Shown here one piece after another: positions 1 through 11,783 of a DNA stretch of 11,786 nucleotides; position 1 is the first letter of the stretch, and every line of letters begins with the position of its first letter. Both the position numbers and the translations under genes were made by a program. The stretch lies in IMG/VR virus record IMGVR_UViG_2698536590_000002. One strand, written 5' to 3'. Origin of the DNA: a virus (taxonomy: Duplodnaviria; Heunggongvirae; Uroviricota; Caudoviricetes). Below the pieces are notes generated by a model. It saw only the letters and a list, made by a program, of their open reading frames with translations, ran no database searches and was not told the origin of the DNA.

Positions 1-338
1 GTAAGTTGGCAGCATCACCAGCCTTCTTGAGGCTACCACCTGTTTTCAGGTGTCATTCAGACGTGATTTGCCCCAGATTGGGAAAGCACGCTTTTTTCTC
101 AGCTATCGTCCTCTTATTTTGCCGTTACATTTCTTTTTGCACTCTAATGATTAATTTACAATAATAATATCGGTAATTATTGAGTAATAATAAATTGATT
201 ATTGCAAATGTAATTTAATTCCATCTTCGCGTTATATTTCAATCTTTAATCTCCGCATGGAACAAGTTGCATGCGTGACTATATTAAGACAACTTATAAC
301 CACCAAAACATTTGCTTTGCAAGCAAAAACAGTGACCA

Positions 339-367
339 TTGACTCTAAGAAAATTCCGATCTATTGT
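339..367 (+). promoter_or_regulatory. candidate sigma70 promoter TTGACT-N17-TATTGT
   Basis: TTGACT at 339-344, exact 17-nt spacer, TATTGT at 362-367; a near-palindrome TTTGCTTTGCAAGCAAA (311-327) lies just upstream. Sequence pattern only. Confidence 0.25.
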
Positions 368-652
368 TAGGGTCATCAAAGTTACTTAACAGTATTCCGA
401 AATGAAAATACAAAGCAAGCTAATTGTCTTATTAAACATTATTATTGCATTTATATTATTTGAGCTTTTAGCTCAAAAATTTGGTTTGAGTACATTATTT
501 TAAAGCAAGATAAACAATATCGGGCACTCTAGTTTTTATAATTAACAATTAAACGTCCATGAAATGTTATTTACTTTTCTTCGCTATTGTCATATCTTAA
601 TATAGTGGCTTACGCCACTCTACTTTCATCACATTTTGTACGTTTATGTACT

Positions 653-682
653 CGCCATGAAGCTCTTTCATGGCGATTTTTT
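653..682 (+). terminator. intrinsic terminator-like hairpin plus T-tract
   Basis: 9-bp perfect stem CGCCATGAA / TTCATGGCG (653-661 / 667-675), 5-nt loop, then ATTTTTTATT. The T-run follows the hairpin only on the plus strand. Confidence 0.4.
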
Positions 683-768
683 ATTCTTAATCCAAGAACA
701 TACTCCCTACCTATAGCAAAATCACTTTTTTAACAAAAGAATAACGTATTTAGGTAATCATTACGAAT

Positions 769-1350
769 TTACCCTATAGGTGCTACTGGCCATTCAATAT
801 CCGGTGCAGTTAATGTATCAACACGGTTCAGCAACACCCGATACTTTTTCCAGGCTTCCAGCAACAAGGTTTCTTCCTCCGTTGCGATTTCCAGATCTAC
901 AGCATCCTGAAGTGGCGCAATATGCTCACTGGCTACCTGCATCAGGCTGTTTTTTGTTTCTTCTGCCTCCCGGATCCGGAACAGTTTTTCTGCTTCCGTA
1001 TCCTTCACCCAGGCTGTGCCGTTCCACTTCTGATATTCCCCTCCCGGCGACAACCAGGTAACATTTTCCGGTAACGGACCGAGTTCAGAAATAAATAACG
1101 CGTCGCCGGAAGCCACGTCATAAACCGTTTTACCCCGATGGTCTTCAACGAGATGCCACGATGCCTCATCACTGTTGAAAACAGCCACGAAGCCTGCCGG
1201 AATATCTGGTGGTGCAATATCGGTACTGTTTGCTGGCAGACCTGTATGAGGCGGAATATATGCGTCACCTTCACCAATAAATTCATTAGTTCCGGCCAGC
1301 AGATTATAAATTTTTATGGTCCGTGCTTGTTCACTCATTCTGAATGCCAT
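769..1350 (-). CDS. tfa: tail fibre assembly protein (lambda Tfa / T4 gp38-like chaperone family)
   Basis: 193-aa ORF starting [50 protein letters not shown], recognised as the conserved Tfa N-terminal domain of lambdoid prophages. ATG overlaps the stf stop (TAATG), indicating translational coupling. Confidence 0.85.
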
Positions 1351-4300
1351 TATGCAAGCCTCACAATATAGTTAAATGCGATGTTTTTGACGGTGTTTTC
1401 CGCGTTACCCGCAGCGTTAACGGTGATGGTGTGTCCATGTGAGCCAATCGCAACGGAGTGCGTATGAGCACCAATACCGACAGTATGTGCATGTGCGCCT
1501 GCGATTGCAGCAGTGCCGGACAGCGAGTGGGTATGAGCACCATCTGATGATGTCTTCCCTGCATTACGAGTCTGGCCACTACCGCTTGTTGTGCTCATAA
1601 TCCCCGCGCTTGGATTTGAAATCGCGGTATAACCATTAGGGAAAATGCTCGTGTTCGTGCCACCAAATGCACCGGAACTCTTGTGTTGGTGCGCGCCGGC
1701 ACTATTTGCGGTCCCGCTAATACTATGGGTATGCGCCCCGGTGTTATTCGTGGATTTGGTTCCGTAATCAAACGACGATGTGGTTTTCGTCCCCAAATCC
1801 GTACTGGATGCGCTGGCGCTGTGGGTGTGCGATTTAATGCCGTCCTGTTCCTGAGACAATACGGCGCGACCACTGGCAGGTTTGCCCTTAATCGTCCAGC
1901 CACGCATATCAGGGATCACGCCTGACGGATAAGCGGCTGCAAGTTTCGGGTATGCAGATTTGTCAAAAGTCTGCCCCTGCATCAGGGCATAACCAGACGG
2001 AACGGTATCTGATGGCCACGGGATTGGTGCGCCGACTGGGTAGCTTTCTGGTGGAAGATTTTTCGAGGTATAAACTTCTGCCCAGTCTTCCTCAAAACCA
2101 TAGCCATCTCTTGAGGAACGGTAGAACAGACCTCCATTTCTGTAATGTGCCTTCATCTGCAGGGTCCGGCAACTTCCGACTCCGGTATAGAAGTTAACCA
2201 GAATATAGCTGTCGCCAGAGCGGGTGACATTGTAAGCGCCTGATTCGGCATTCCATGGAACGCCCCCATCCGCATCGGCATATGTATCCGTTGCCCTTCT
2301 GGCAAAAGCAGCCACATGCGCGGCGGTTAAAGTAATATCTTTGGAACCATCAAACTCAACACCAGAAACCAGTCTTGGCGTTTGCAGCTTTGTTGCTGTT
2401 AATGCATTACCATTCAGACTTGCGGACAGTTTGGTTCCAATAATCAGTTCGCCGGTTGCGTTATCAATAGCAAACGGTCTTAATGTATTCCAGCCACCAT
2501 AAACATCACCTTGATTGGTAAGCAGCAGGTAAGTTTTAGCGCCATCATTACGCCATAATGCACCATACTCCCCACCTATCATTCGAATCTGATTACCACC
2601 ACGCGCTACAATTTCGTCTGTGGCAAAAAGTTTTTTGCACGACAAGTTATCGTTAACGATTAACGAATGAGACTCATAAAAACCACGCCCACTCTTAAAA
2701 TCAAGGATAACGTCCGCCGCGATACATTCAGTCGCCGGATTTGTTGCCCCAAACTTATAGGTCGTATCATTAACAACGAGATCAGCACCAGGTGCGGATA
2801 TTGACAGGCCATCTTCGATAAACGCAAAAACAGGGAAAGCAGCGCCATCAACATAGAACACAGAGCGCAAATCATCGCCCTTATTACTCATCATTATTGA
2901 GTGGATGGCTCGTTCATTGTTTTGATATTGCCAGAACATTCCATAAGCATAACGCCCCCTGTCAGTCCAGCCACCAGGCATAACAAATCCGTTAAACTCG
3001 CAGTTATTCATCGGATCGCCTGCGGTTCGCGTTGCCGTGGTGATAATGACCCTTGATGCCAGTTCGCTTACTGAGCCAGCAGAACGCATAACAACAACAG
3101 GGTAATATTTTCCAGATATTGCACCTGCAGGAGCGTTAACCCGCACATAACGCATACCACGCTTATCAGCAAAGTCTGTTTTACTGACCGCGTTAATGTT
3201 GTTCAGGAAGCGTCCCTTATCGGGTATATCAGCGCCGTTCTGGTCTTTCTGCAGACGTTTCTCTGCATTGTCATAGGCTGATTTTACTGCCTTTGGCGTT
3301 GCCGCCAGCGTTTCAGACGAACTGTTGGTCGCACTGCTGAGCTGTACTATCCCCTTTTTCGTCGTACTTGCATCCTCAAGCGCCACGGCGGATGCAATAT
3401 CCTCTGCCCGTTTAGCTGCTGTCTCGGCGCGCGTTGCTGCGGATTCTGCCGTATTCTTGCTCTGTGCTGCCGCCGTCGCACTGCCAGCAGCCTCTGTTGC
3501 CTTCGTGGATGCCGTCGTGGCGCTGCCTTTCGCTGCTGATGCCTGTCTGGTCGCCTCATCTTTTGAAGCAGACGCCGATGAGGCCGATGACGCCGCCGAA
3601 CTGGCGGACGATGCGGCAGCCGTTTTTGAGGATTCTGCGCTGGTTTCCGACGCTTTCGCGTTCGTTTCGGATGTCTTCGCTGCGGAAGCTGACCTCGCTG
3701 CTGCGTTGGCCTGTTCAGTGGCTTCGCCAGCCTTCGTTGTGGCTGTTGAAGCAGACGATGCGGCACTTTCTGCCGATTTTCCGGCGGCGGTGGCACTGGC
3801 TGAGGCCTGCCCGGCACTTGTTGACGCGGCGCTGGCAGACGACGCAGCCGCTGTTTTTGAGCCTGCCGCAGCTGAGGCACTCTGTCCCGCTGCCGTTTCA
3901 GAAGACTTAGCGTTCGTCTCGGACGTTTTGGCCGCCTTCGCAGAATTTGCTGTCGCCGTTGCCGAGGAAGCTGCGCTGCTGGCGCTCGAGGCTGCGCTCG
4001 TTTCTGATGATTTTGCCGCCTCTTTTGAAGCTGACGCATCCCGGGCTGAGGTGGCAGCTTCTGACGCTTTCGTGGTCGCGGTGGATGCAGAAGTGGCTGC
4101 TGATTGTTGTGACGCTGCCGCATTCGTTTCTGACGTTTTCGCCGCAGCGGCACTGGTGGCCGCCGCGCTTTTTGAGGACTCTGCAGCGGCAGCACTTTTT
4201 TCCGCTTCAGTGGCCTTTGTTGATGCCGTTCCTGCGCTGGAAGACGCTGACTGAGCCGACGACGCGGCCTGTCCGGCTGACGTGCTGGCTGCGCGTGCTG

Positions 4301-4757
4301 AGCCTGCAGCATCAGTCGCATGGGTTGCCGCCTCACGGGCTGATGTGCCGGCATCGCTGGCTGACTTCTTCGCGGCTGCCGTGTTCTGTGCCACCGCGGA
4401 CGCGTTACGCGCCACCTCTTCCACCATCAGCTCAAAACGGCGCAGTGCCTCCGGACGGGCATCATCCTCCGTCATGGCACCAAGAAAATCATTCAGCGTA
4501 CCCGGTTGTGAGTCTTCATACACGGTGATGGTCCCGGCATGCGATGGCGGGAAGCCTTCCACCAACAGAATAACGCTGTACTGACCGTACTCAACGTCCA
4601 TGCTGTAACGCCCGGCTTCATCCGGATTTTCTGAGGCCACCGTGTTCACCACCACCGTGGTGCTGTTACGTTTTGCTTTCAGCTGGATTGTGCAGTTCTG
4701 TACCGGTTTTCCTGTGCCGTCTTTCAGTACACCTGAAATCTTTACTGCCATATTCAC
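1350..4757 (-). CDS. stf: side tail fibre protein (lambda Stf / Rac StfR-like)
   Basis: 1135-codon ORF. The track start is GTG at 4755-4757; the first ATG is two codons in (4749-4751), preceded by GGGGTG, giving [26 protein letters not shown], the conserved Stf N-terminus, so the real start is probably 4751. Ala/Ser/Thr-rich repeat shaft, conserved [50 protein letters not shown] block, C-terminal tip with seven HxH motifs, ending [11 protein letters not shown]. Confidence 0.9.
3390..4409 (-). repeat. intragenic low-complexity Ala/Ser/Thr-rich tandem repeats in the stf shaft
   Basis: Stf residues ~117-456 are almost entirely A/S/T/K/E with the unit AAKTSETNA recurring three times at roughly 70-90-residue spacing. 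The GC-rich codons create long spurious ORFs in other frames and on the opposite strand. Confidence 0.7.
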
Positions 4758-4761
4758 CCCA

Positions 4762-4789
4762 CAAAAAAGCCCGCCTGAACCGGCGGGCT
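4762..4789 (-). terminator. rho-independent terminator downstream of lom
   Basis: Perfect 8-bp stem AGCCCGCC / GGCGGGCT (4768-4775 / 4782-4789) with a 6-nt loop; on the minus strand it is followed by a U-tract (plus-strand A-run 4763-4767). Lies between the lom stop (4816) and the stf start. Confidence 0.7.
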
Positions 4790-4815
4790 GTCATAACACT
4801 GTGTTACCTGGCTAA

Positions 4816-5415
4816 TCAGAACTTATAACCGACACCCACGATGAAACCGTCAGTGCGCCAGTCACCACTGCCGGAGCCTTCATAAGCAATATCAATGGCC
4901 ACGGATTCGGTCGGGTTAAACTGCACGCCAGCCCCCCACGCCAGAGACGTGTTGCTGTGGCGACCGTCATCACTTCCGGTCAGCACATCGTGCGTTTTCC
5001 CCTTGTTGTCAGTTACGCGGAGATAATCCCCGAAGAAAGTCGACACACGGCTGTAAGCCACACCCGCCATCGCATACGCGCTGAACCATTCATTCACGCG
5101 CACAGACGGCCCCGCCATCACGCTGAACCAGCGGTTACGCACGGAATCTTCATGCCAGCGGGTATCGCTGTAACGGGTAAGCTGGCGATTCTTGTCTCCT
5201 GCATAGCTGAATGACGTCATCAGCCCCAGTGTGTCCGTAAACTCATAACGGTATTTCACGTTAATCCCGTTCAGATTATCGCTGCCGGGAACGTTCGCCA
5301 AGGCATGAAGATACCCCGCGCTCAGCGTGGACTGATGTTCAGATGCCCATGCAGGCGCACCGGATACGGCCAGACAAATGGCTGCGGAAAAAATGGCGGC
5401 ATAAAGTTTACGCAT
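4816..5415 (-). CDS. lom: outer membrane beta-barrel protein Lom (Ail/Lom/PagC/Rck family)
   Basis: 199-aa ORF with signal peptide [24 protein letters not shown], alternating beta-strand pattern, and C-terminal GVGYKF aromatic terminus typical of outer membrane proteins. Position between J and stf matches lambda gene order. RBS GAGAGG upstream. Confidence 0.85.
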
Positions 5416-5438
5416 AATTACCTCTCGCTTTTCTGCAA

Positions 5439-5463
5439 TAAAAAAGGCACCATTTCTGGTGCC
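5439..5463 (-). terminator. rho-independent terminator between the J fragment and lom
   Basis: Stem GGCACCA / TGGTGCC (5446-5452 / 5457-5463) with 4-nt loop; on the minus strand it is followed by a U-tract (plus-strand A-run 5439-5445). Confidence 0.6.
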
Positions 5464-5484
5464 CTTATATGGGTTATAACAATT

Positions 5485-6126
5485 TCAACGAATACTGATG
5501 CCGGAAGCGGCTTTTTTGGTCACAATCACCGTACAGTCGGTGATATTACCTGCCCGCTGATTGCCTTTATGGAAAACCTTAAACTCCAGAGTGACGCTTC
5601 CCCTGCCACTCGGCATATCAATAACCGCACTGTAGCTACCGGGAATGGCCCCTTTAGTTTCTCTGGATGCGATTAATACACCGTTTTTGCGAACTTCAAA
5701 ACCATAACCCGTGTATCTTGTACCTCCCGGGTTATTACCACTTCCCGGATCGCTATACGCTATTCCGTTAAAGATAATGGGCGGAATAATGATTTGACGG
5801 TCAAAGTTATGATCATCGCTGATGGTGACTGTAACCGTCCCGTTTGGTGTTTCCGTATTACCCCACGTACCAGCCTGTTTCGGGAATGATTTGGATACAG
5901 CTTTAACGAAGTCACCTCTGACCTGAGTCGCCTCCAGCATGCCCTTAATCGTACAGTTTTCATTTACCGTGACATTGTTGAGCGTCCCGGCGTTCGCATT
6001 CACACTGCCACTGATATCCGCATTTTTAGCGGTCAGCTTTCCGTCCGGTGTCAGGGAAAATGCCGGTGGATTTCCACCGCTGGTAATGGTGGGGGCCGTC
6101 AGGCGTTTCAGGAACACGTCGTTCAT
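5485..6126 (-). CDS. C-terminal receptor-binding domain of host-specificity protein J (central tail fibre), present as a truncated stand-alone ORF
   Basis: 213-aa ORF; motifs [40 protein letters not shown] and DDH.FDRQI resemble the extreme C-terminus of lambda gpJ as I recall it. Its ATG overlaps the T stop (ATGA) exactly where H would normally start; the preceding sequence GAAGGGATCAGATATTC matches the lambda T/H junction. A full J is ~1100 aa, so roughly 900 codons plus H-I are absent. Confidence 0.6.
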
Positions 6127-6545
6127 GAATATCTGATCCCTTCTGATACTGTCATCAGCATTACGTCATCCTCCGTCATGTCCGCCACATCCGGGGAAGC
6201 GGGGATAACTTCATTCCCGTCCGGGCCAAAGCGGACACCTCCGGCAAGCCCTGCCGCTTTCTGCATCAGCACATCATCTTCAGGCTCTTCGTCAGCCTCG
6301 CGCCGGTTCAGCAGACTGAAATCCAGCGGATGCATATCCGGATCGCTGAAAAACAGGCTGAGCACGGTGTACGTCAGCCCGGAAAAGTGCATATCCAGCA
6401 GAACATCATGAAAATAATGGGTACTGTAAAAGCGGTGCCAGTCGGCATACTCCGTGGATGACATCCCGGCAAGCATGGCACGCCAGTCGGGTCGCCCCAT
6501 CTCACGCGCCAGTTTCAGGGCAAAACTCAGCTCACCGTCGAACAC
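6123..6545 (-). CDS. T: tail assembly chaperone T frame, expressed as a G-T fusion by -1 frameshift
   Basis: -1 frame relative to G with no independent ATG; reads (V)[39 protein letters not shown]...VSEGIRYS, matching lambda gpT. Confidence 0.8.
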
Positions 6546-6949
6546 TTTCCCGCAGAAACAGGCTCTGCGGGCCCGGCGTCCTCTGTCTGTTCAGGGGCAT
6601 TATTCACCACAAACTCATACATACCAGACAGCCGGTACACCACGTTTTCAGCATGAGAAATTGCCTCCGTGGGCCAGGTGGTAAGCACTTCCTGCTCAAT
6701 CTGTTTAACGGCTTCATTCATGGACGGCATCTGCGTCTTCTGCGGATGGTTATGCCACAGGGACATCGCCACCAGAAACGCGCCGGTTCTGATGGCGTCT
6801 TCCACAGTAAACTTCCGGTTGCTGTCTGACTCCGCCTGTTCTGCCTGCCGTTTCATCAGGGCGAGATGCTCAATGCGCTGCAGGGCTGACAGTTCAGAAA
6901 GCGTGACGGTCACACCGTTATGTTCAAATGATTCGGTTTTCAGGAACAT
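6527..6949 (-). CDS. G: tail assembly chaperone G
   Basis: 140-aa ORF MFLKTESFEHNGVTVTLSELSALQRIEHLALMKRQAEQ...[11 protein letters not shown], recognised as lambda gpG (same length). RBS GGAGAG upstream; sits between the V stop and the T frame. Confidence 0.85.
   Translation of the reverse strand: MFLKTESFEHNGVTVTLSELSALQRIEHLALMKRQAEQAESDSNRKFTVEDAIRTGAFLVAMSLWHNHPQKTQMPSMNEAVKQIEQEVLTTWPTEAISHAENVVYRLSGMYEFVVNNAPEQTEDAGPAEPVSAGKCSTVS
6545..6551 (-). other. programmed -1 ribosomal frameshift slippery heptamer G GGA AAG (G to G-T)
   Basis: Plus-strand CTTTCCC at 6545-6551 is GGGAAAG on the coding strand, in G frame as G_GGA_AAG (codons A-G-K of ...SAGKCSTVS). This is the canonical lambda G/T slip site, and the T frame opens exactly here. 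Confidence 0.8.
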
Positions 6950-6964
6950 CGCTGACTCTCCGGA

Positions 6965-7375
6965 TTAACTGGCGGTGACGGTAATTTCTGCAACCGCAGC
7001 AAACTCACCATTACCGGATACAACCGGAATGTTGACCTTGCCTGCAGCAACGCCGTTCACGGTGATGGTCATACCACTGACCGACACGGTGGCTTTTGTT
7101 TTATCCGCAGACACCGCACGAAAGCTCTTGTCGGTTACGCCCTCCGGCTGGAAGGCCACGGTCAGCGTGGTGCTCTGCCCTTTCACCACCGAGGTGCTGG
7201 CAGGCGTCACGGTCATGCCGGTTGCCGCTGTTACCGTGCTGCGATCTTCTGCCATCGACGGACGTCCCACATTGGTGACTTTCACCGTGCGGGTGATCAC
7301 TTCCTTCGCCGTCACCGCCTTACCGATACTGCTGACCCAGCCACGGAACACATCGATCGTGCCGTTCGGGAACCG
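6965..7375 (-). pseudogene. V: major tail protein V, C-terminal half only (includes the Ig-like domain); N-terminal ~115 codons deleted
   Basis: Frame reads [47 protein letters not shown]...AEITVTAS, matching lambda gpV from about residue 115 to its end. An in-frame TAG sits immediately upstream (7379-7381); there is no ATG or credible RBS, only an internal GTG at 7349-7351. Confidence 0.8.
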
Positions 7376-7434
7376 GCACTACCTGCTGAGGTGCCATAGG
7401 CGACACCCGTTGTTAACTTATCCATGGATTTCAT
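7372..7434 (-). pseudogene. N-terminal remnant (~21 codons) of a phage-21-type pinholin (S21 / EssD-like), fused out of frame to V
   Basis: Strong RBS GAGGTGGGG then ATG at 7434, encoding [21 protein letters not shown]. This matches the dual-start (MKSM) N-terminus of the phage 21 pinholin as I recall it ([26 protein letters not shown]...). Similarity stops after SAG (~7372) and the frame runs into V sequence out of frame. Confidence 0.55.
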
Positions 7435-8024
7435 AACCCCACCTCGCAGACAAAGCGGGTGTAAATTGAGGGAATACAACGTATCGCAAAAAAGCAGAAA
7501 CGTAACAGACTCGGAGTCAGTGAATAACTCAGGTATTGAGTTATCAGCTAATATCGAGACTCAAAAAATGGAAAAACCAGCTCGACGGCGGGTTTAAGCT
7601 GTGTGACGAAGTAACCACTCTTAACAGCATAACCAATTTTTTACGTACGTAAACCACTGAATGATATTTATGAGAATGCTACCGAGTGTTCAAAACACCA
7701 CCACAAATACATAAGAAAACCTCAACAAATAACCAATAAATAATTTCCGGCGTTATTTTTAGTTAATTTAAATTAAACCATCGAATTATAGACCCCCCCC
7801 ATAAATAACAGCCATTAATATAAATTAGCTAATAGGTTTATTTTTGTTCAAATAAGAGCCATAAATAGGTTTCGATAGAAAAAGTTCAGATAAAAATAGA
7901 GATCTACTTCACAAATTAAATGAGAAACTAAAACTTACATCTTGAAATAATCACATTGATTAGATGAATATTTATCGCGCAGTGACATCATTTTTTAATA
8001 ATAGTTCAAAAAAAAGGGCTCACG

Positions 8025-9107
8025 ATGAAAAAATTAACAGTGGCAATTTCTGCTGTAGCTGCATCAGTACTGATGGCGATGTCTGCTCAGGCAGCTGAAA
8101 TTTATAATAAAGACAGTAACAAGCTGGATCTGTACGGGAAAGTTAATGCTAAGCACTACTTCTCCTCTAATGATGCAGATGATGGTGATACTACTTATGC
8201 CCGTCTTGGCTTCAAAGGTGAAACCCAAATCAACGATCAACTGACTGGTTTCGGTCAGTGGGAATATGAATTCAAAGGCAACCGCGCTGAATCTCAAGGT
8301 TCCTCCAAAGATAAAACCCGTCTTGCCTTCGCTGGCCTGAAATTCGGTGACTACGGCTCCATCGATTACGGCCGTAACTACGGTGTAGCATACGACATCG
8401 GTGCGTGGACTGACGTCCTGCCAGAATTCGGTGGTGACACTTGGACTCAAACAGATGTGTTCATGACTGGTCGCACCACTGGTGTTGCAACTTATCGTAA
8501 CAACGACTTCTTTGGTCTGGTTGATGGTCTGAACTTTGCTGCTCAGTATCAGGGTAAAAATGACCGCACTGACGTAACTGAAGCTAATGGTGATGGTTTC
8601 GGTTTCTCCACTACTTATGAGTATGAAGGATTCGGTGTAGGTGCAACCTATGCTAAATCTGATCGCACTAATAATCAGGTTATCTACGGTAACAACGGTC
8701 TGAATGCTTCTGGTCAAAATGCTGAAGTATGGGCAGCTGGTCTGAAATATGATGCGAACAACATCTATCTGGCCACCACCTATTCTGAAACCCAGAACAT
8801 GACTGTTTTTGGTAATAACCATATTGCCAACAAAGCACAAAACTTCGAAGCTGTTGCACAATATCAGTTCGACTTCGGCCTGCGTCCATCCGTTGCTTAC
8901 CTGCATTCTAAAGGAAAAGACTTGGGTGTTTGGGGTGATCAGGACCTGGTTGAATATGTTGATGTAGGTGCAACCTATTACTTCAACAAAAATATGTCCA
9001 CTTTTGTTGACTACAAAATCAACCTGATTGATAAGAGCGATTTCACGAAAGCATCTGGCGTTGCTACCGATGATATCGTTGCTGTAGGTATGGTTTACCA
9101 GTTCTAA
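8025..9107 (+). CDS. nmpC: phage-borne general porin of the OmpC/OmpF/PhoE family (NmpC / Lc type)
   Basis: 360-aa ORF with signal peptide [23 protein letters not shown], mature N-terminus [17 protein letters not shown], porin hallmarks ([43 protein letters not shown]) and C-terminal VYQF. Matches what I recall of NmpC/Lc. Divergent from and adjacent to Q, as in DLP12. Confidence 0.9.
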
Positions 9108-9243
9108 TTTGATTACTAAAAGATATGTTGTGGGAGGCTTTGCCTCCCCAACATATAAGTGGCTCCCTCAAGCCACTTCCTTTAGAAGCACAACCTTGCT
9201 TCTAACTATATAAACCTTCTGTTATATATTACCCTTTATTTTT

Positions 9244-9270
9244 GGGGGCGTTGCAACGCCCCATTTTTAA
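9244..9270 (+). terminator. rho-independent terminator downstream of nmpC
   Basis: Perfect palindrome GGGGCGTTGCAACGCCCC (9245-9262) followed by ATTTTTAATAATTTTT. Three further strong hairpins lie between the nmpC stop and this site (9132-9148, 9157-9178, 9183-9204). Confidence 0.65.
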
Positions 9271-9295
9271 TAATTTTTAGTAAACAACTGGCATA

Positions 9296-9679
9296 TTAAT
9301 TAGAGTTATTAACAACGATATCCATCTCTAACCGGATATCTAATGCCATTAACATCCCTTCAATTATGCCCTCAGCCTTCTGTAACCTTTTCCCGATATA
9401 ACCATCAGAGCAGCAATGCTTACCTGCCAGTGACATGAATGTCATACCGACTACATAATAATCTACTAATAAATCGTGCAAATCGCTGTTGTTCTTTTTC
9501 AGACGGGCCATGCACCCGCAAATAATCATCGCGTCATCGTCACAACATTGCGGGCGAGATTTTACTTTTGAAGTAATTAATCCCTTAAAACCGGCGGCAA
9601 TGGACGACCAGGTCACATCTTCATGATTATTAGCCGCCCACGCTCCCCAACGCTCAAGAACCATCTGAATATCACGCAT
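9296..9679 (-). CDS. quuD: late-gene antitermination protein Q (phage 82 / DLP12 QuuD-like)
   Basis: 127 aa from ATG at 9677-9679 (RBS GGAG; the track ORF extends upstream from a TTG). Reads [64 protein letters not shown]..., recognised as the 82-type Q family with its Cys-rich zinc motif. Gene order rusA-ylcG-Q-nmpC matches DLP12. Confidence 0.8.
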
Positions 9680-9764
9680 CAACTTACTCCACAAAAATCA
9701 GACCAGAACGCCAATTACAAGCAAAAATCAACAAAACAGTATTAGTTGATTGTTATCTCTGACT

Positions 9765-9905
9765 TCATACTCCTGCTCCTGTCAGGGTTTTGGCGTAATT
9801 CTTCAGTATTCGGTAATCGGTCAAAACAGAACCGGGGAAACGATATAAGCGCAGATGCCCCCAGCGGTGGCGAAGAAGTTCTGCCATATAAAACTCAAAC
9901 ATCAT
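9765..9905 (-). CDS. ylcG: small DLP12 YlcG-like protein (46-47 aa), not in the ORF track
   Basis: Hand translation of the minus strand between rusA and Q gives [46 protein letters not shown] with stop at 9765-9767. The ATG overlaps the rusA stop (ATGATG over TGA at 9902-9904). Matches my recollection of YlcG. Confidence 0.55.
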
Positions 9906-10264
9906 TCATTCCCAATTTCGGTGATGGTCAGTTCCAGCCTCCCACCTTTGGTAACAGGCATCTTCACAACGCGGTAATCAACGACCTGAGCATCATCCAG
10001 CCAGAAACCTGCTTTAGTGAGTGCGTCAAAAGCGGCTTTTTGCAGATTATCCAGGTCACGGCGACGGCGATCCGGCATGTGGCACTCAATGCGGATTTTC
10101 ACAGGCATAGCCAGGCCGATATCCAGCATTGCGTTTTTAATGATTCGGGCGACGTTATCGCGGTATGCCTGCCCCTCTGCGCTGACGTGCGTGCGCCCGC
10201 GATTATGGCGGTAATAGCGATTATTGCTCGGAGGCCAGGGTAATGTGATGCTGTAGGTATTCAC
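9902..10264 (-). CDS. rusA: crossover junction endodeoxyribonuclease RusA (Holliday junction resolvase)
   Basis: 120-aa ORF (GTG start with RBS AAGAGGGGG) reading [119 protein letters not shown], essentially the E. coli RusA sequence as I recall it. Confidence 0.85.
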
Positions 10265-10386
10265 GCCTTAATAACCCCCTCTTTCAGCCAGATAACCTGT
10301 GTTCTCGCCATACCTTCCAGCGCGCATTCTTTTGCATATGCAGCATCGACTTGCTTGGCATGCCCTTTAGGCGCGATCACTTTCGT
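10261..10386 (-). pseudogene. ybcO: 3' remnant of ybcO-like (DUF1364) gene; last ~41 codons only
   Basis: Minus-strand frame ending in TGA overlapping the rusA GTG (GTGA) reads [41 protein letters not shown]; the last ~28 residues match the YbcO C-terminus as I recall it. An in-frame TAG lies at 10387-10389 and no start or matching N-terminal sequence lies upstream. Confidence 0.5.
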
Positions 10387-10494
10387 CTACTCCGTTACAA
10401 AGCGAGGCTGGGTATTTCCCGGCCTTTCCGTTACCCGAAATCCCCTGAAAGCACAGCGGCTGGCTGAGGAGATAAATAATAAACGGGGAGCTGT

Positions 10495-10686
10495 ATGCAC
10501 AAAGCATCTCCTGTTGAGTTAAGAACGAGCATTGAGATGGCACATAGCCTCGCTCAAATTGGAGTCAGGTTTGTGCCAATACCAGTAGAAACAGACGAAG
10601 AATTTCATACGTTAGCCGCATCCCTTTCACAAAAGCTGGAAATGATGGTGGCGAAAGCAGAAGCAGATGAGAGAGACCAGGTATGA
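10495..10686 (+). CDS. 63-aa phage early-region protein of unknown function (possibly lambda orf63-like)
   Basis: ORF MHKASPVELRTSIEMAHSLAQIGVRFVPIPVETDEEFHTLAASLSQKLEMMVAKAEADERDQV with good RBS GGGGAG 4 nt before the ATG; its stop overlaps the next start (ATGA). The lambda orf63 assignment rests on size and position only. Confidence 0.6.
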   Translation: MHKASPVELRTSIEMAHSLAQIGVRFVPIPVETDEEFHTLAASLSQKLEMMVAKAEADERDQV

Positions 10687-10766
10687 CAACCACTGAATGC
10701 ATTTTTCTGGCAGCGGGCTTCATATTCTGTGTGCTTATGCTTGCCGACATGGGACTTGTTCAATGA
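10683..10766 (+). CDS. 27-codon hydrophobic micro-ORF (single predicted transmembrane helix), not in the ORF track
   Basis: ATG at 10683 overlaps the upstream stop (ATGA) and its own TGA overlaps the next ATG (ATGA at 10763-10766). Encodes MTTTECIFLAAGFIFCVLMLADMGLVQ. Supported only by the double translational-coupling geometry and hydrophobicity. Confidence 0.3.
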   Translation: MTTTECIFLAAGFIFCVLMLADMGLVQ

Positions 10767-10978
10767 CACCTCAGCAGGAAAACGCCCTTCGCAGCATTGC
10801 CCGTCAGGCTAATTCTGAAATCAAAAAAGCCAGACAGCAGTTTCCGGATAAAAACGTCGATGACATTTGCCGTAGCGTACTGAAGAAGCACCGCGAAACG
10901 GTAACGCTGATGGGATTCACACCGACTCATTTAAGCCTGGCGATCGGCATGTTAAACGGCGTCTTTAAGGAACGGTGA
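10763..10978 (+). CDS. 71-aa phage early-region protein of unknown function
   Basis: Reading from the ATG at 10763: MTPQQENALRSIARQANSEIKKARQQFPDKNVDDICRSVLKKHRETVTLMGFTPTHLSLAIGMLNGVFKER. The track ORF (from 10697) has a longer N-terminal extension, but 10763 is the coupled start. Confidence 0.55.
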   Translation: MTPQQENALRSIARQANSEIKKARQQFPDKNVDDICRSVLKKHRETVTLMGFTPTHLSLAIGMLNGVFKER

Positions 10979-11000
10979 GCATGAAAAACAAAATCATCAT

Positions 11001-11021
11001 GGAGCTACAGGCTCCTTTTTT
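11001..11021 (+). terminator. weak terminator-like hairpin plus T-tract
   Basis: GGAGC TACAG GCTCC followed by TTTTTTATT. Only a 5-bp stem. It lies inside a possible 29-codon ORF (10981-11070), which I therefore consider less likely to be real. Confidence 0.3.
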
Positions 11022-11076
11022 ATTATTCGCATTCACCCTCAAGCGTATTAACCAACAATTCAGGGATTAATGAAAG

Positions 11077-11298
11077 ATGGCAGACATCATTGATTCAGCA
11101 TCAGAAATTGAAGAATTACAGCGCAACACAGCAATAAAAATGCGCCGCCTGAACCACCAGGCTATATCTGCCACTCATTGTTGTTAGTGTGGCGATCCGA
11201 TAGATGAACGAAGACGCCTGGTCGTTCAGGGTTGTCGGACTTGTGCAAGTTGCCAGGAGGATCTGGAACTTATCAGTAAACAGAGAGGTTCGAAGTGA
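11077..11298 (+). pseudogene. TraR/DksA-family C4 zinc-finger protein gene (lambda Orf73-like) interrupted by an in-frame amber codon
   Basis: Frame reads MADIIDSASEIEELQRNTAIKMRRLNHQAISATHCC then TAG (11185-11187), then CGDPIDERRRLVVQGCRTCASCQEDLELISKQRGSK and stop. Across the TAG this aligns with the TraR motif C-x-x-C-G-N-P-I-P-E-A-R-R...C-x-x-C as I recall it, with the TAG at the second x of the first CxxC. Confidence 0.6.
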
Positions 11299-11783
11299 GC
11301 GAAATTAACTCTCAGGCACTGCGTGAAGCGGCAGAGCAGGCAATGCATGACGACTGGGGATTTGACGCAGACCTTTTCCATGAATTGGTAACACCATCGA
11401 TTGTGCTGGAACTGCTGGATGAACGGGAAAGAAACCAGCAATACATCAAACGCCGCGACCAGGAGAACGAGGATATTGCGCTAACAGTAGGGAAACTGCG
11501 TGTTGAGCTTGAAACAGCAAAATCAAAACTCAACGAGCAGCGTGAGTATTACGAAGGTGTTATCTCGGATGGGAGTAAGCGTATTGCTAAACTGGAAAGC
11601 AACGAAGTCCGTGAAGACGGAAACCAGTTTCTTGTTGTTCGCCATCCTGGGAAGACTCCTGTTATCAAGCACTGCACTGGTGACCTGGAAGAGTTTCTGC
11701 GGCAGTTAATCGAACAAGACCCGTTAGTAACTATCGACATCACTACGCATCGCTATTACGGGGTTGGTAGACTGGCCCCCTGA
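11295..11783 (+). CDS. Ea22-like early-region protein with predicted coiled coil
   Basis: 162-aa ORF; GTG start overlaps the upstream TGA (GTGA), with RBS AGAGG 8 nt upstream. MSEINSQALREAAEQAMHDDWGFDADLFHELVTPSIVLELLDERERNQQYIKRRDQENEDIALTVGKLRVELETAKSKLNEQ has heptad-like character. The Ea22 assignment is from memory of prophage proteins carrying that label and is tentative. Confidence 0.5.
   Translation: MSEINSQALREAAEQAMHDDWGFDADLFHELVTPSIVLELLDERERNQQYIKRRDQENEDIALTVGKLRVELETAKSKLNEQREYYEGVISDGSKRIAKLESNEVREDGNQFLVVRHPGKTPVIKHCTGDLEEFLRQLIEQDPLVTIDITTHRYYGVGRLAP

Follow-up and report, generated by a model that had tools for sequence, protein, structure and literature searches.

Holins of the phage 21 type, described for S21 68/71, are translated from an MKSM dual start that gives rise to holin and antiholin forms and adopt a two-helix topology, two transmembrane helices being required of a class II holin (PMC9636201). 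The cryptic lambdoid prophages DLP12, Rac, and Qin of E. coli K-12, and “grounded” prophages generally, became fixed in the chromosome by internal deletions of lysis, packaging, and structural genes, with accessory genes persisting. The stretch of DNA analyzed here (the window; 11,786 nucleotides) is the whole of contig LOOJ01000065.1 (GCA_001575515.1), reversed, from a draft short-read assembly of E. coli, and it carries a prophage remnant of the same kind, with porin, lom, rusA, Q, and tail-fibre genes retained and a late-control module of the DLP12 type (quuD, porin, essD). It differs from DLP12, Rac, and Qin in lying at ybhC/ybhB-bioA as opposed to argU, ttcA, or ydfJ, and in that its set of three deletion joints occurs in one near-clonal group of draft assemblies and in none of 5,426 complete E. 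coli genomes. At the first of these joints, the start of an essD-type holin gene runs directly into the interior of the major tail gene V. The features of the window, with the joints numbered 1 to 3, are as follows.

1–19: IS1 end.
769–1350: tfa.
1350–4757: stf.
4816–5415: lom.
5485–6138, minus strand: tail tip gene J, C-terminal ∼212 codons (receptor-binding end); Pfam Ig_GpJ_C.
6123–6545, minus strand: T gene, truncated at lambda 10525 and continuing for 4 codons into J DNA.
6135–6138: joint 2 (T′/′J), lambda 18268 joined to 10525 at a GATC microhomology.
6527–6949, minus strand: tail assembly chaperone gene G, intact, by lambda identity; Pfam Phage_TAC_2, E = 9e-62.
6965–7372, minus strand: 3′ part of major tail gene V, codons ∼112–246 and stop, 99.8% to lambda 9284–9695.
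7312–7434, minus strand: chimeric 40-codon ORF, 21 holin residues and 19 out-of-frame V residues, ending in TGA.
7371–7376, minus strand: joint 1 (holin/V), where the BLAST homologies overlap in CCGGTT; placed by three-way alignment.
7371–7434, minus strand: essD (phage 21-type class II holin) remnant, dual start MKSM, codons 1–21, and first base of codon 22.
7379–7381, minus strand: TAG in the V reading frame, within holin-derived DNA, closing the V frame upstream of the joint; read directly.
7435–7445, minus strand: ribosome-binding region of the holin gene, GAGG at 7445–7442, 7 nt 5′ of the ATG; read directly.
7435–10369, minus strand: late-control module retained 5′ of the holin start, 94% to Turner 38235–41228 and 97% to att-lambda remnants; Pfam.
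8025–9107, plus strand: OmpC/Lc-type porin gene; Pfam.
9296–9694: Q antiterminator, within the late-control module; Pfam.
9902–10264: rusA, within the late-control module; Pfam.
10368–10369, plus strand: joint 3 (nin/orf60a), nin (...GCATGCCCTT TA) joined to orf60a/DUF1317 at codon ∼9 (GGCGCGATC...).
10368–11767: orf60a′, orf63, orf61-like gene, TraR-like gene, and ea22, matching lambda 31323–29923 at 98.4%.

On the holin side of joint 1, the start signals that the original prediction had read from the letters (a ribosome-binding site and an MKSM dual start at 7434) are present, with the first ATG at 7434–7432 on the minus strand and a second in-frame ATG at codon 4 (7425–7423). The region 5′ of this start is identical to that of essD in phage Turner, E. 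coli JKHS016, and strain 52F4. Residues 1–21 match EssD of Turner and JKHS016 exactly and EssD of 52F4 at all but one position, in agreement with the ∼21 residues of a phage 21-type holin N terminus that had been proposed. At the DNA level, positions 7371–7800 match essD loci annotated in many complete E. coli genomes at 99–100% identity, and the essD-side DNA is 94–99% identical to the holin regions of lambdoid phages, PA-2 included. The Pfam profile PF04971 (Phage_holin_2_1, “Bacteriophage P21 holin S”) aligns with residues 5–22 at profile positions 1–18 of 64 (E = 7e-4), its score of 19.9 bits lying below the gathering cut-off of 26, as expected of a fragment. Identity to EssD stops after residue 21 of 71. 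As compared to S21 68/71 and EssD, the window thus keeps an identical ribosome-binding site and dual start and residues 1–21 of the 71, but the second transmembrane helix and apparently most of the first are lost and the cognate SAR endolysin and spanins are deleted, leaving a gene fragment and no holin. V DNA lies directly 3′ of the fragment, without SAR endolysin or spanin genes at this locus, whereas rrrD and rzpD are kept in the relatives 52F4 and JKHS016.

On the other side, window positions 6135–7376 (minus strand) match lambda 10525–9284 at 99.84% identity, a block that covers V codons ∼111–246, G, and most of T with two mismatches, one of them at joint 1 itself. Lambda 9284 is the third base of V codon 110, and the V frame starts at R111 (partial) or F112 (full). 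The direct fusion into V and the difference in frame between the two parts were therefore correctly predicted, while the entry point, given as about V residue 115, is corrected to residue 111/112. The TAG at 7379–7381 was likewise predicted. Mapping against lambda detected no V homology 5′ of 7376, and so none upstream of 7380. The V fragment comprises the last part of the tube domain and the Ig-like domain at the C terminus (Pfam Phage_TTP_12, PF16461, positions 103–135 of 135; Big_2, PF02368), and it has no start of its own except an internal GTG at 7351; it thus has neither the complete tube domain nor the proper start of a lambda-type V. Relative to lambda V, codons 112–246 are retained at 99.8% DNA identity and are followed by an intact G, as in lambda, but the N-terminal 110 residues, the start codon, the ribosome-binding site, and the upstream genes U and Z are gone. 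Such a fragment is predicted to be incapable of forming a tail tube. In annotation, 7312–7434 is best recorded as an essD fragment and 6965–7372 as a V fragment, neither to be called a gene.

The two homologies abut. The holin match runs as far as 7371 and the V match begins at 7376, giving an overlap of 7371–7376 with zero unassigned bases. In a three-way alignment the holin parent reads GTGCCGGTT/ACTGG, the lambda V parent reads AATCCGCTT/CCCGAACGG, and the window reads GTGCCGGTTCCCGAACGG. Lambda V and Turner V both have CCGCTT at the overlap as compared to CCGGTT in the window, a match of five of six bases, and the strictly shared bases are TT (7372–7371) alone, G7373 being holin-derived and C7370 V-derived. 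Alignment to essD and lambda V (2–6 bp of overlap) is consistent with the predicted position of the joint within 7370–7376 and with the predicted lack of intervening sequence, but the CCGG tetranucleotide cannot be assigned equally well to both parents, as had been suggested, since G7373 is specific to the holin with respect to lambda-type V. A V allele with CGG at Arg111, which would supply the full 6-bp microhomology, exists, but it belongs to a V gene 79% identical and is an unlikely parent. The three-way alignment contains no IS end, IS remnant, target duplication, or filler at joint 1; the parents abut at a few shared bases, as in a microhomology-type illegitimate deletion. With both flanks near-identical to annotated genes over hundreds of bases, the assignment of the two parents is, as judged from these alignments, far beyond chance.

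The loss of genes in the remnant extends further than the original prediction, which described the missing holin–V block and overlooked two additional deletion joints. Joint 2 marks the loss of H, M, L, K, and I together with ∼920 codons at the 5′ end of J; window positions 5929–6135 match lambda 18474–18268 within the J fragment, and colinear J reaches 6138 in other genomes. At joint 3, exo through N, cI, cro, O, P, and part of nin are lost, that is, the immunity and replication genes. The three joints together remove exo–nin, S′–′V, and T′–′J. Genes still intact are int, xis, Q, rusA, the porin gene, G, lom, stf, and tfa, and the late-control module also holds ylcG and a DUF1364 gene fragment. 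Judged by this gene content, the element has lost the capacity for replication, cell lysis, DNA packaging, and virion assembly.

Longer contigs from sibling assemblies place the element in the chromosome. One (L005) carries ybhJ, ybhC, int, and xis on one side, and another (L006) carries tfa, ybhB, and bioA on the other, so that the element occupies the lambda attachment site (attB-lambda) between ybhC and ybhB-bioA; two relatives (L003 and L004) have the same ybhC and ybhB-bioA flanks. In the complete genome of strain 52F4, a prophage at the same site shares the Q-porin-essD module and, 3′ of it, keeps essD-rrrD-rzpD-bor-ybcV-ybcW-ylcI-nohD-A′; the terminase A segment (the 5′ part of the gene) is 98–99% identical to lambda and is joined to the 3′ end of J. 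In the complete genome of JKHS016, again at the same site, essD through ybcW are kept and the sequence then jumps to stfR. V-G-T is absent from both. Relatives with different deletions at one locus indicate that the missing block once existed in this prophage family, as the original prediction had assumed. In the intact phage Turner, which is colinear, the holin and V points stand in the same order and orientation 11,467 bp apart, and a composite of 52F4 (3.2 kb from joint to cos) and lambda 1–9283 gives a deletion of ∼12.5 kb. The comparison, made at the level of sequence, points to independent decay in different att-lambda lineages, with the holin/V deletion specific to the lineage of the window.

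The identical 28-bp joint 1 occurs in six independent draft E. coli assemblies (that of the window and five more, which were found only via exact-protein look-up of the chimeric T′J′ ORF), and the lineage-specific chimeric T′J′ protein is listed in 32 blocks of the gene collection. The sibling assemblies are 99.87–99.98% identical to the window over the aligned part (all or most of its length), and by this measure the six are one near-clonal lineage. None of joints 1, 2, or 3 has an unbroken span in the 5,426 complete E. coli genomes, nor does a single region in any of them cover as much as 80% of the window. The 28-bp joint 1 is also absent from species-representative genomes, IMG/VR viral contigs, and JGI metagenome contigs, and none of the PLSDB plasmid records spans it.

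Taken together, an internal illegitimate deletion of ∼11.5–12.5 kb in a single att-lambda prophage very probably made the holin/V joint. The ancestor would have had a lambda-type segment from int through orf60a followed by exo through nin, a DLP12/PA-2-type late-control and lysis module (Q-porin-S21-R21-Rz), and a lambda-type late region (bor-cos-nu1...U-V-G-T-H...J-lom-stf-tfa). This ancestor is a composite of relatives 94–99% identical, no intact direct ancestor having been found, and it was presumably a mosaic, as the V-G-T block is 99.8% identical to lambda as compared to 87–91% for the neighboring J′, lom, and stf. A homology-independent deletion would then have joined holin codon 21/22 to V codon 111/112 with nothing inserted. 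The deleted DNA would have held what remained of the holin gene, the SAR endolysin and spanin genes, bor and cos, the genes for both subunits of the terminase and for the portal, protease/scaffold, decoration, and capsid proteins, FI, FII, Z, and U, and V codons 1–110. The mechanism may have been replication slippage or end-joining; since cos lies within the deleted segment, a break there, resected and then end-joined, would be equally possible. The T′/′J and nin/orf60a deletions would have completed the decay. As in short-homology illegitimate deletions in E. coli (slipped mispairing, microhomology end-joining, palindrome-assisted), the parents of joint 1 have 2–6 bp in common, filler and a mobile-element end are lacking, and an inverted repeat flanks the joint; the difference here is a span of ∼12 kb, which is large for slippage. 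We infer a single event for joint 1 on grounds of parsimony; given the mosaic ancestor, recombination with a second prophage might conceivably have played some part. Since all six assemblies carry all three joints, they do not fix the number or order of events. On this reading, joint 1 is a base-pair record of the disabling of one lambda-type prophage at the lambda attachment site and a clean example of parallel prophage decay with porin, lom, Q, rusA, and tail-fibre genes retained; in itself it is ordinary prophage decay and matters little.

The joint 1 product is a quasi-palindrome, GTGCCG-GTTCCCGAA-CGGCAC, and a 6-nt inverted run so near a joint has p ∼0.02 in random endpoint pairs, a hint that the endpoints may have been picked by DNA secondary structure or by a sequence-directed process and not purely at random. 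This bears on a separate observation in the same element: the orf60a breakpoint used by joint 3 (lambda ∼31323; window 10368–10369) is strikingly recurrent. The intact sequence there reads ...ATATCCGGG TA GGCGCGATC.... In an unbiased sample of 119 IMG/VR contigs with the right-hand flank, exo–orf60a homology breaks within 1.5 kb upstream in only ten; four of these breaks fall on the boundary between exo and bet, five fall at the orf60a site (four base-exact, one with a 7-bp imperfect overlap), and the last is due to an IS3-family element inserted 9 bp away. Across all sources there are at least 13 distinct joints of the form partner...TA/GGCGCG; the remnants that carry them lie at att-lambda, the DLP12 site (intD/argU), and other loci. 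Each of the 10 partners that could be placed on the lambda/Turner map is colinear (10/10), in O, ren, the N6-methyltransferase gene, other nin positions, the lysozyme/Rz region, or stf, and two more partners, a tail-fibre-like gene and a baseplate-V-like gene, are on the expected strand. Two joints run in the opposite direction (...CCGGGTA/CC...), ending in or just before int.

Every joint at the orf60a site has the TA, and in none does the following base come from the partner, which confines the crossover to TA. Intact partner sites have the form T-TA-CC, with CC following TA in 6 of 9 (8% expected; p = 2e-5) and T preceding it in 10 of 13 (30% expected; p = 7e-4), and one of the two reciprocal products would accordingly read GG-TA-CC. 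JKHS016 also uses the nin endpoint of joint 3, there joined to an ea22 site that reads ...GG TA. The deletions that dismantled this prophage family may be sequence-directed, usually through a 2-bp TA crossover between inverted GG-TA sites that gives a GG-TA-CC quasi-palindrome, with the holin/V joint (CGGG-AA-CCGG) as a possible further product; we regard this as tentative and on balance doubtful. The agent would be a putative recombinase, or a transposase-like or structure-specific activity.

One candidate for comparison is IS621 (IS110), whose bridge-RNA target is the 11-nt ATC(A/G)GGCCTAC with crossover in the CT core (PMC11208160). The bottom strand at the orf60a site, ATCGCGCCTAC, agrees with the bridge-RNA-encoded target of IS621, ATCGGGCCTAC, at 10 of 11 positions, but the crossover confined to TA is one base off the CT core. 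No IS is found at the orf60a joints. The partner sites, moreover, are unlike what we take to be the IS621 donor sequence. To our knowledge, none of the lambda Int core, Din-family invertases, Tn3/gamma-delta res site I, or the integron GTTRRRY core fits these joints, and neither do the IS5 YTAR targets, IS608 TTAC, the cleavage preferences of RuvC or RusA, the 4-bp stagger of gyrase, KpnI/Csp6I-type cuts, or Vsr. Palindrome-assisted slippage (the model attributed to Glickman and Ripley) would fit the geometry seen here, but the frequent use of this one site is not obviously explained by it. The recurrent breakpoint has more potential than joint 1; if an enzyme or DNA structure does direct it, this would bear on how prophages are dismantled and on the origin of lambdoid mosaic boundaries.

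Whether the endpoints of joint 1 were set by the process behind the orf60a breakpoint (a 2-bp crossover at inverted microhomology with a GG-WA-CC product) can be weighed on these data, and an affirmative answer seems unlikely. The plus strand at joint 1, TTCGGG-AA-CCGGCAC, is a quasi-palindrome of the form seen in joint 3, with its at least 13 sibling orf60a joints, and in the JKHS016 nin/ea22 joint, all of which join ...GG TA on one parent to TA CC... on the other. However, the central dinucleotide of joint 1 is AA/TT and not TA, joint 2 is a plain GATC microhomology, no enzyme has been found, and one joint at p = 0.02 is weak. Nor is either endpoint of joint 1 reused with other partners: apart from one intact V carrying an additional T, the searches gave nothing beyond chance matches.

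Formation of joint 1 in several steps, either by successive smaller deletions or by an IS-mediated deletion and later loss of the IS, is quite unlikely. Repeated deletion did occur in the lineage, as the two other joints attest, and IS1 stands at the contig end, with relatives carrying IS1, IS3, and IS5 in or beside the prophage. Against this, the clean alignment described above shows no trace of an IS, target duplication, or filler, the endpoints do not recur elsewhere, and the 5,426 complete genomes contain no relative in an intermediate state, an absence that is no proof.

The chimeric 40-codon ORF behind the intact holin ribosome-binding site is almost certainly inert, as 21 of 71 holin residues are too short for even the first of the two membrane helices; the V fragment downstream is promoterless and has no proper start. 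It is very improbable that the ORF is instead a new small protein under selection, such as a membrane peptide or antiholin-like inhibitor made under control of the Q-dependent late promoter. The ribosome-binding site, dual start, and upstream Q gene are intact and the ORF is identical in all six assemblies, but conservation among near-clonal assemblies (≥99.87%) is uninformative, the holin part ends at residue 21 with the other 19 residues being out-of-frame V, and gene callers did not call the ORF. An exact look-up of its product in the gene collection returned no record.

An assembly artefact, in which essD reads of a DLP12-type prophage were mis-joined to V reads of a lambda-type one, might be suspected of an 11.8-kb short-read draft contig with one end inside an IS1 repeat, in a species where several lambdoid prophages per genome are common (median of two essD-region matches per genome with any), but it is effectively refuted by the presence of the identical joint in six assemblies with different accessions, internal to contigs of up to 45 kb that reach single-copy host genes on both sides. 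Scans for promoters and terminators around joint 1 gave nothing above the shuffled expectation, and the sole Rfam match was IS009, inside tfa.

The breakpoint within orf60a/DUF1317, at which the third deletion joint of the prophage (nin to orf60a) is formed, was examined together with its uninterrupted counterpart in the complete genome of E. coli 52F4 and with the nin-side endpoint of the same joint.

Window 10368-10369 (lambda ~31323): joint 3, breakpoint in orf60a/DUF1317
52F4, 19354-19357: the same breakpoint in uninterrupted form, reading ...CCGGG TA GGCGCGATC...
Window 10351-10369; JKHS016, 16415-16433; 52F4, 18701-18719: nin-side endpoint of joint 3

The orf60a breakpoint is base-precise and recurrent, with at least 13 different truncated partners joined there, among them O, ren, nin genes, lysozyme, and stf, in remnants located at att-lambda, at the site of DLP12 (a cryptic lambdoid prophage of E. 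coli K-12), and elsewhere; two more joints have the reverse orientation. The dinucleotide TA is the sole crossover position, and partner sites conform to T-TA-CC (p = 2e-5 for CC after TA; p = 7e-4 for T before TA). When the IS621 target was compared with the bottom strand at this breakpoint, 10 of 11 positions were identical, with the crossover one base off relative to that target, and the joints themselves were found without any IS. In one IMG/VR viral contig (L076), an IS3-family insertion lies 9 bp upstream of the breakpoint, a proximity that may be coincidence. The nin-side endpoint in its intact form reads ...GCATGCCCTT TA/CCGGCAATC (slash, endpoint) and is present as such in ML35 and 52F4. 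JKHS016, a complete E. coli genome with a related remnant, uses this endpoint again with a different partner, located in ea22 (CAGG TA/TAGCC).

The same remnant carries a second deletion joint between genes T and J.

Window 6135-6138: joint 2, with GATC microhomology

Here lambda 10525, in the truncated T, meets lambda 18268, in J; the remnant lacks H, M, L, K, I, and ~920 codons of J, and the chimeric T'J' ORF of 140 aa provides a handy marker for the lineage of the window. The related att-lambda remnants of JKHS016 and 52F4 each bear a different deletion, ybcW/stfR with GTTA microhomology in the former and terminase A'/'J in the latter. Q, the porin gene, rusA, stf, and tfa are retained in all of these remnants, which represent parallel decay with a retained set in common.

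Window 8025-9107, + strand: intact OmpC/Lc-type porin gene, 360 aa

Q and the holin remnant flank this porin gene and are on the opposite strand, an arrangement shared with PA-2 and DLP12 (nmpC); the porin gene is followed by a strong terminator-like hairpin (9245-9262). Between essD, the phage-21-type holin gene, and the porin gene, a run of C (7790-7800) is two bases longer in the window than in all five sibling assemblies; homopolymer slippage or sequencing error could account for the extra bases.

Features at the tfa end and in a TraR/DksA-type gene are as follows.

Window 1-19: contig start, GTAAGTTGGCAGCATCACC
Window 809-1007, - strand: Rfam family IS009 (RF02111) match within the tail fibre assembly gene tfa, 227.9 bits
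Window 11077-11298, + strand: TraR/DksA-type zinc-finger gene, SNP at 11185

The contig-start sequence is the IS1 terminal inverted repeat, and in JKHS016 the equivalent location is occupied by an IS1A copy. An IS1 copy adjoining the tfa end of the prophage is probably where the assembly broke. The TraR/DksA-type gene of the window stops early, at codon 37 (...HCC*CGD...). Position 11185 is T in the window versus G in all three siblings with alignment covering it, each of which has a TraR/DksA-type gene of 73 aa called at the equivalent site.
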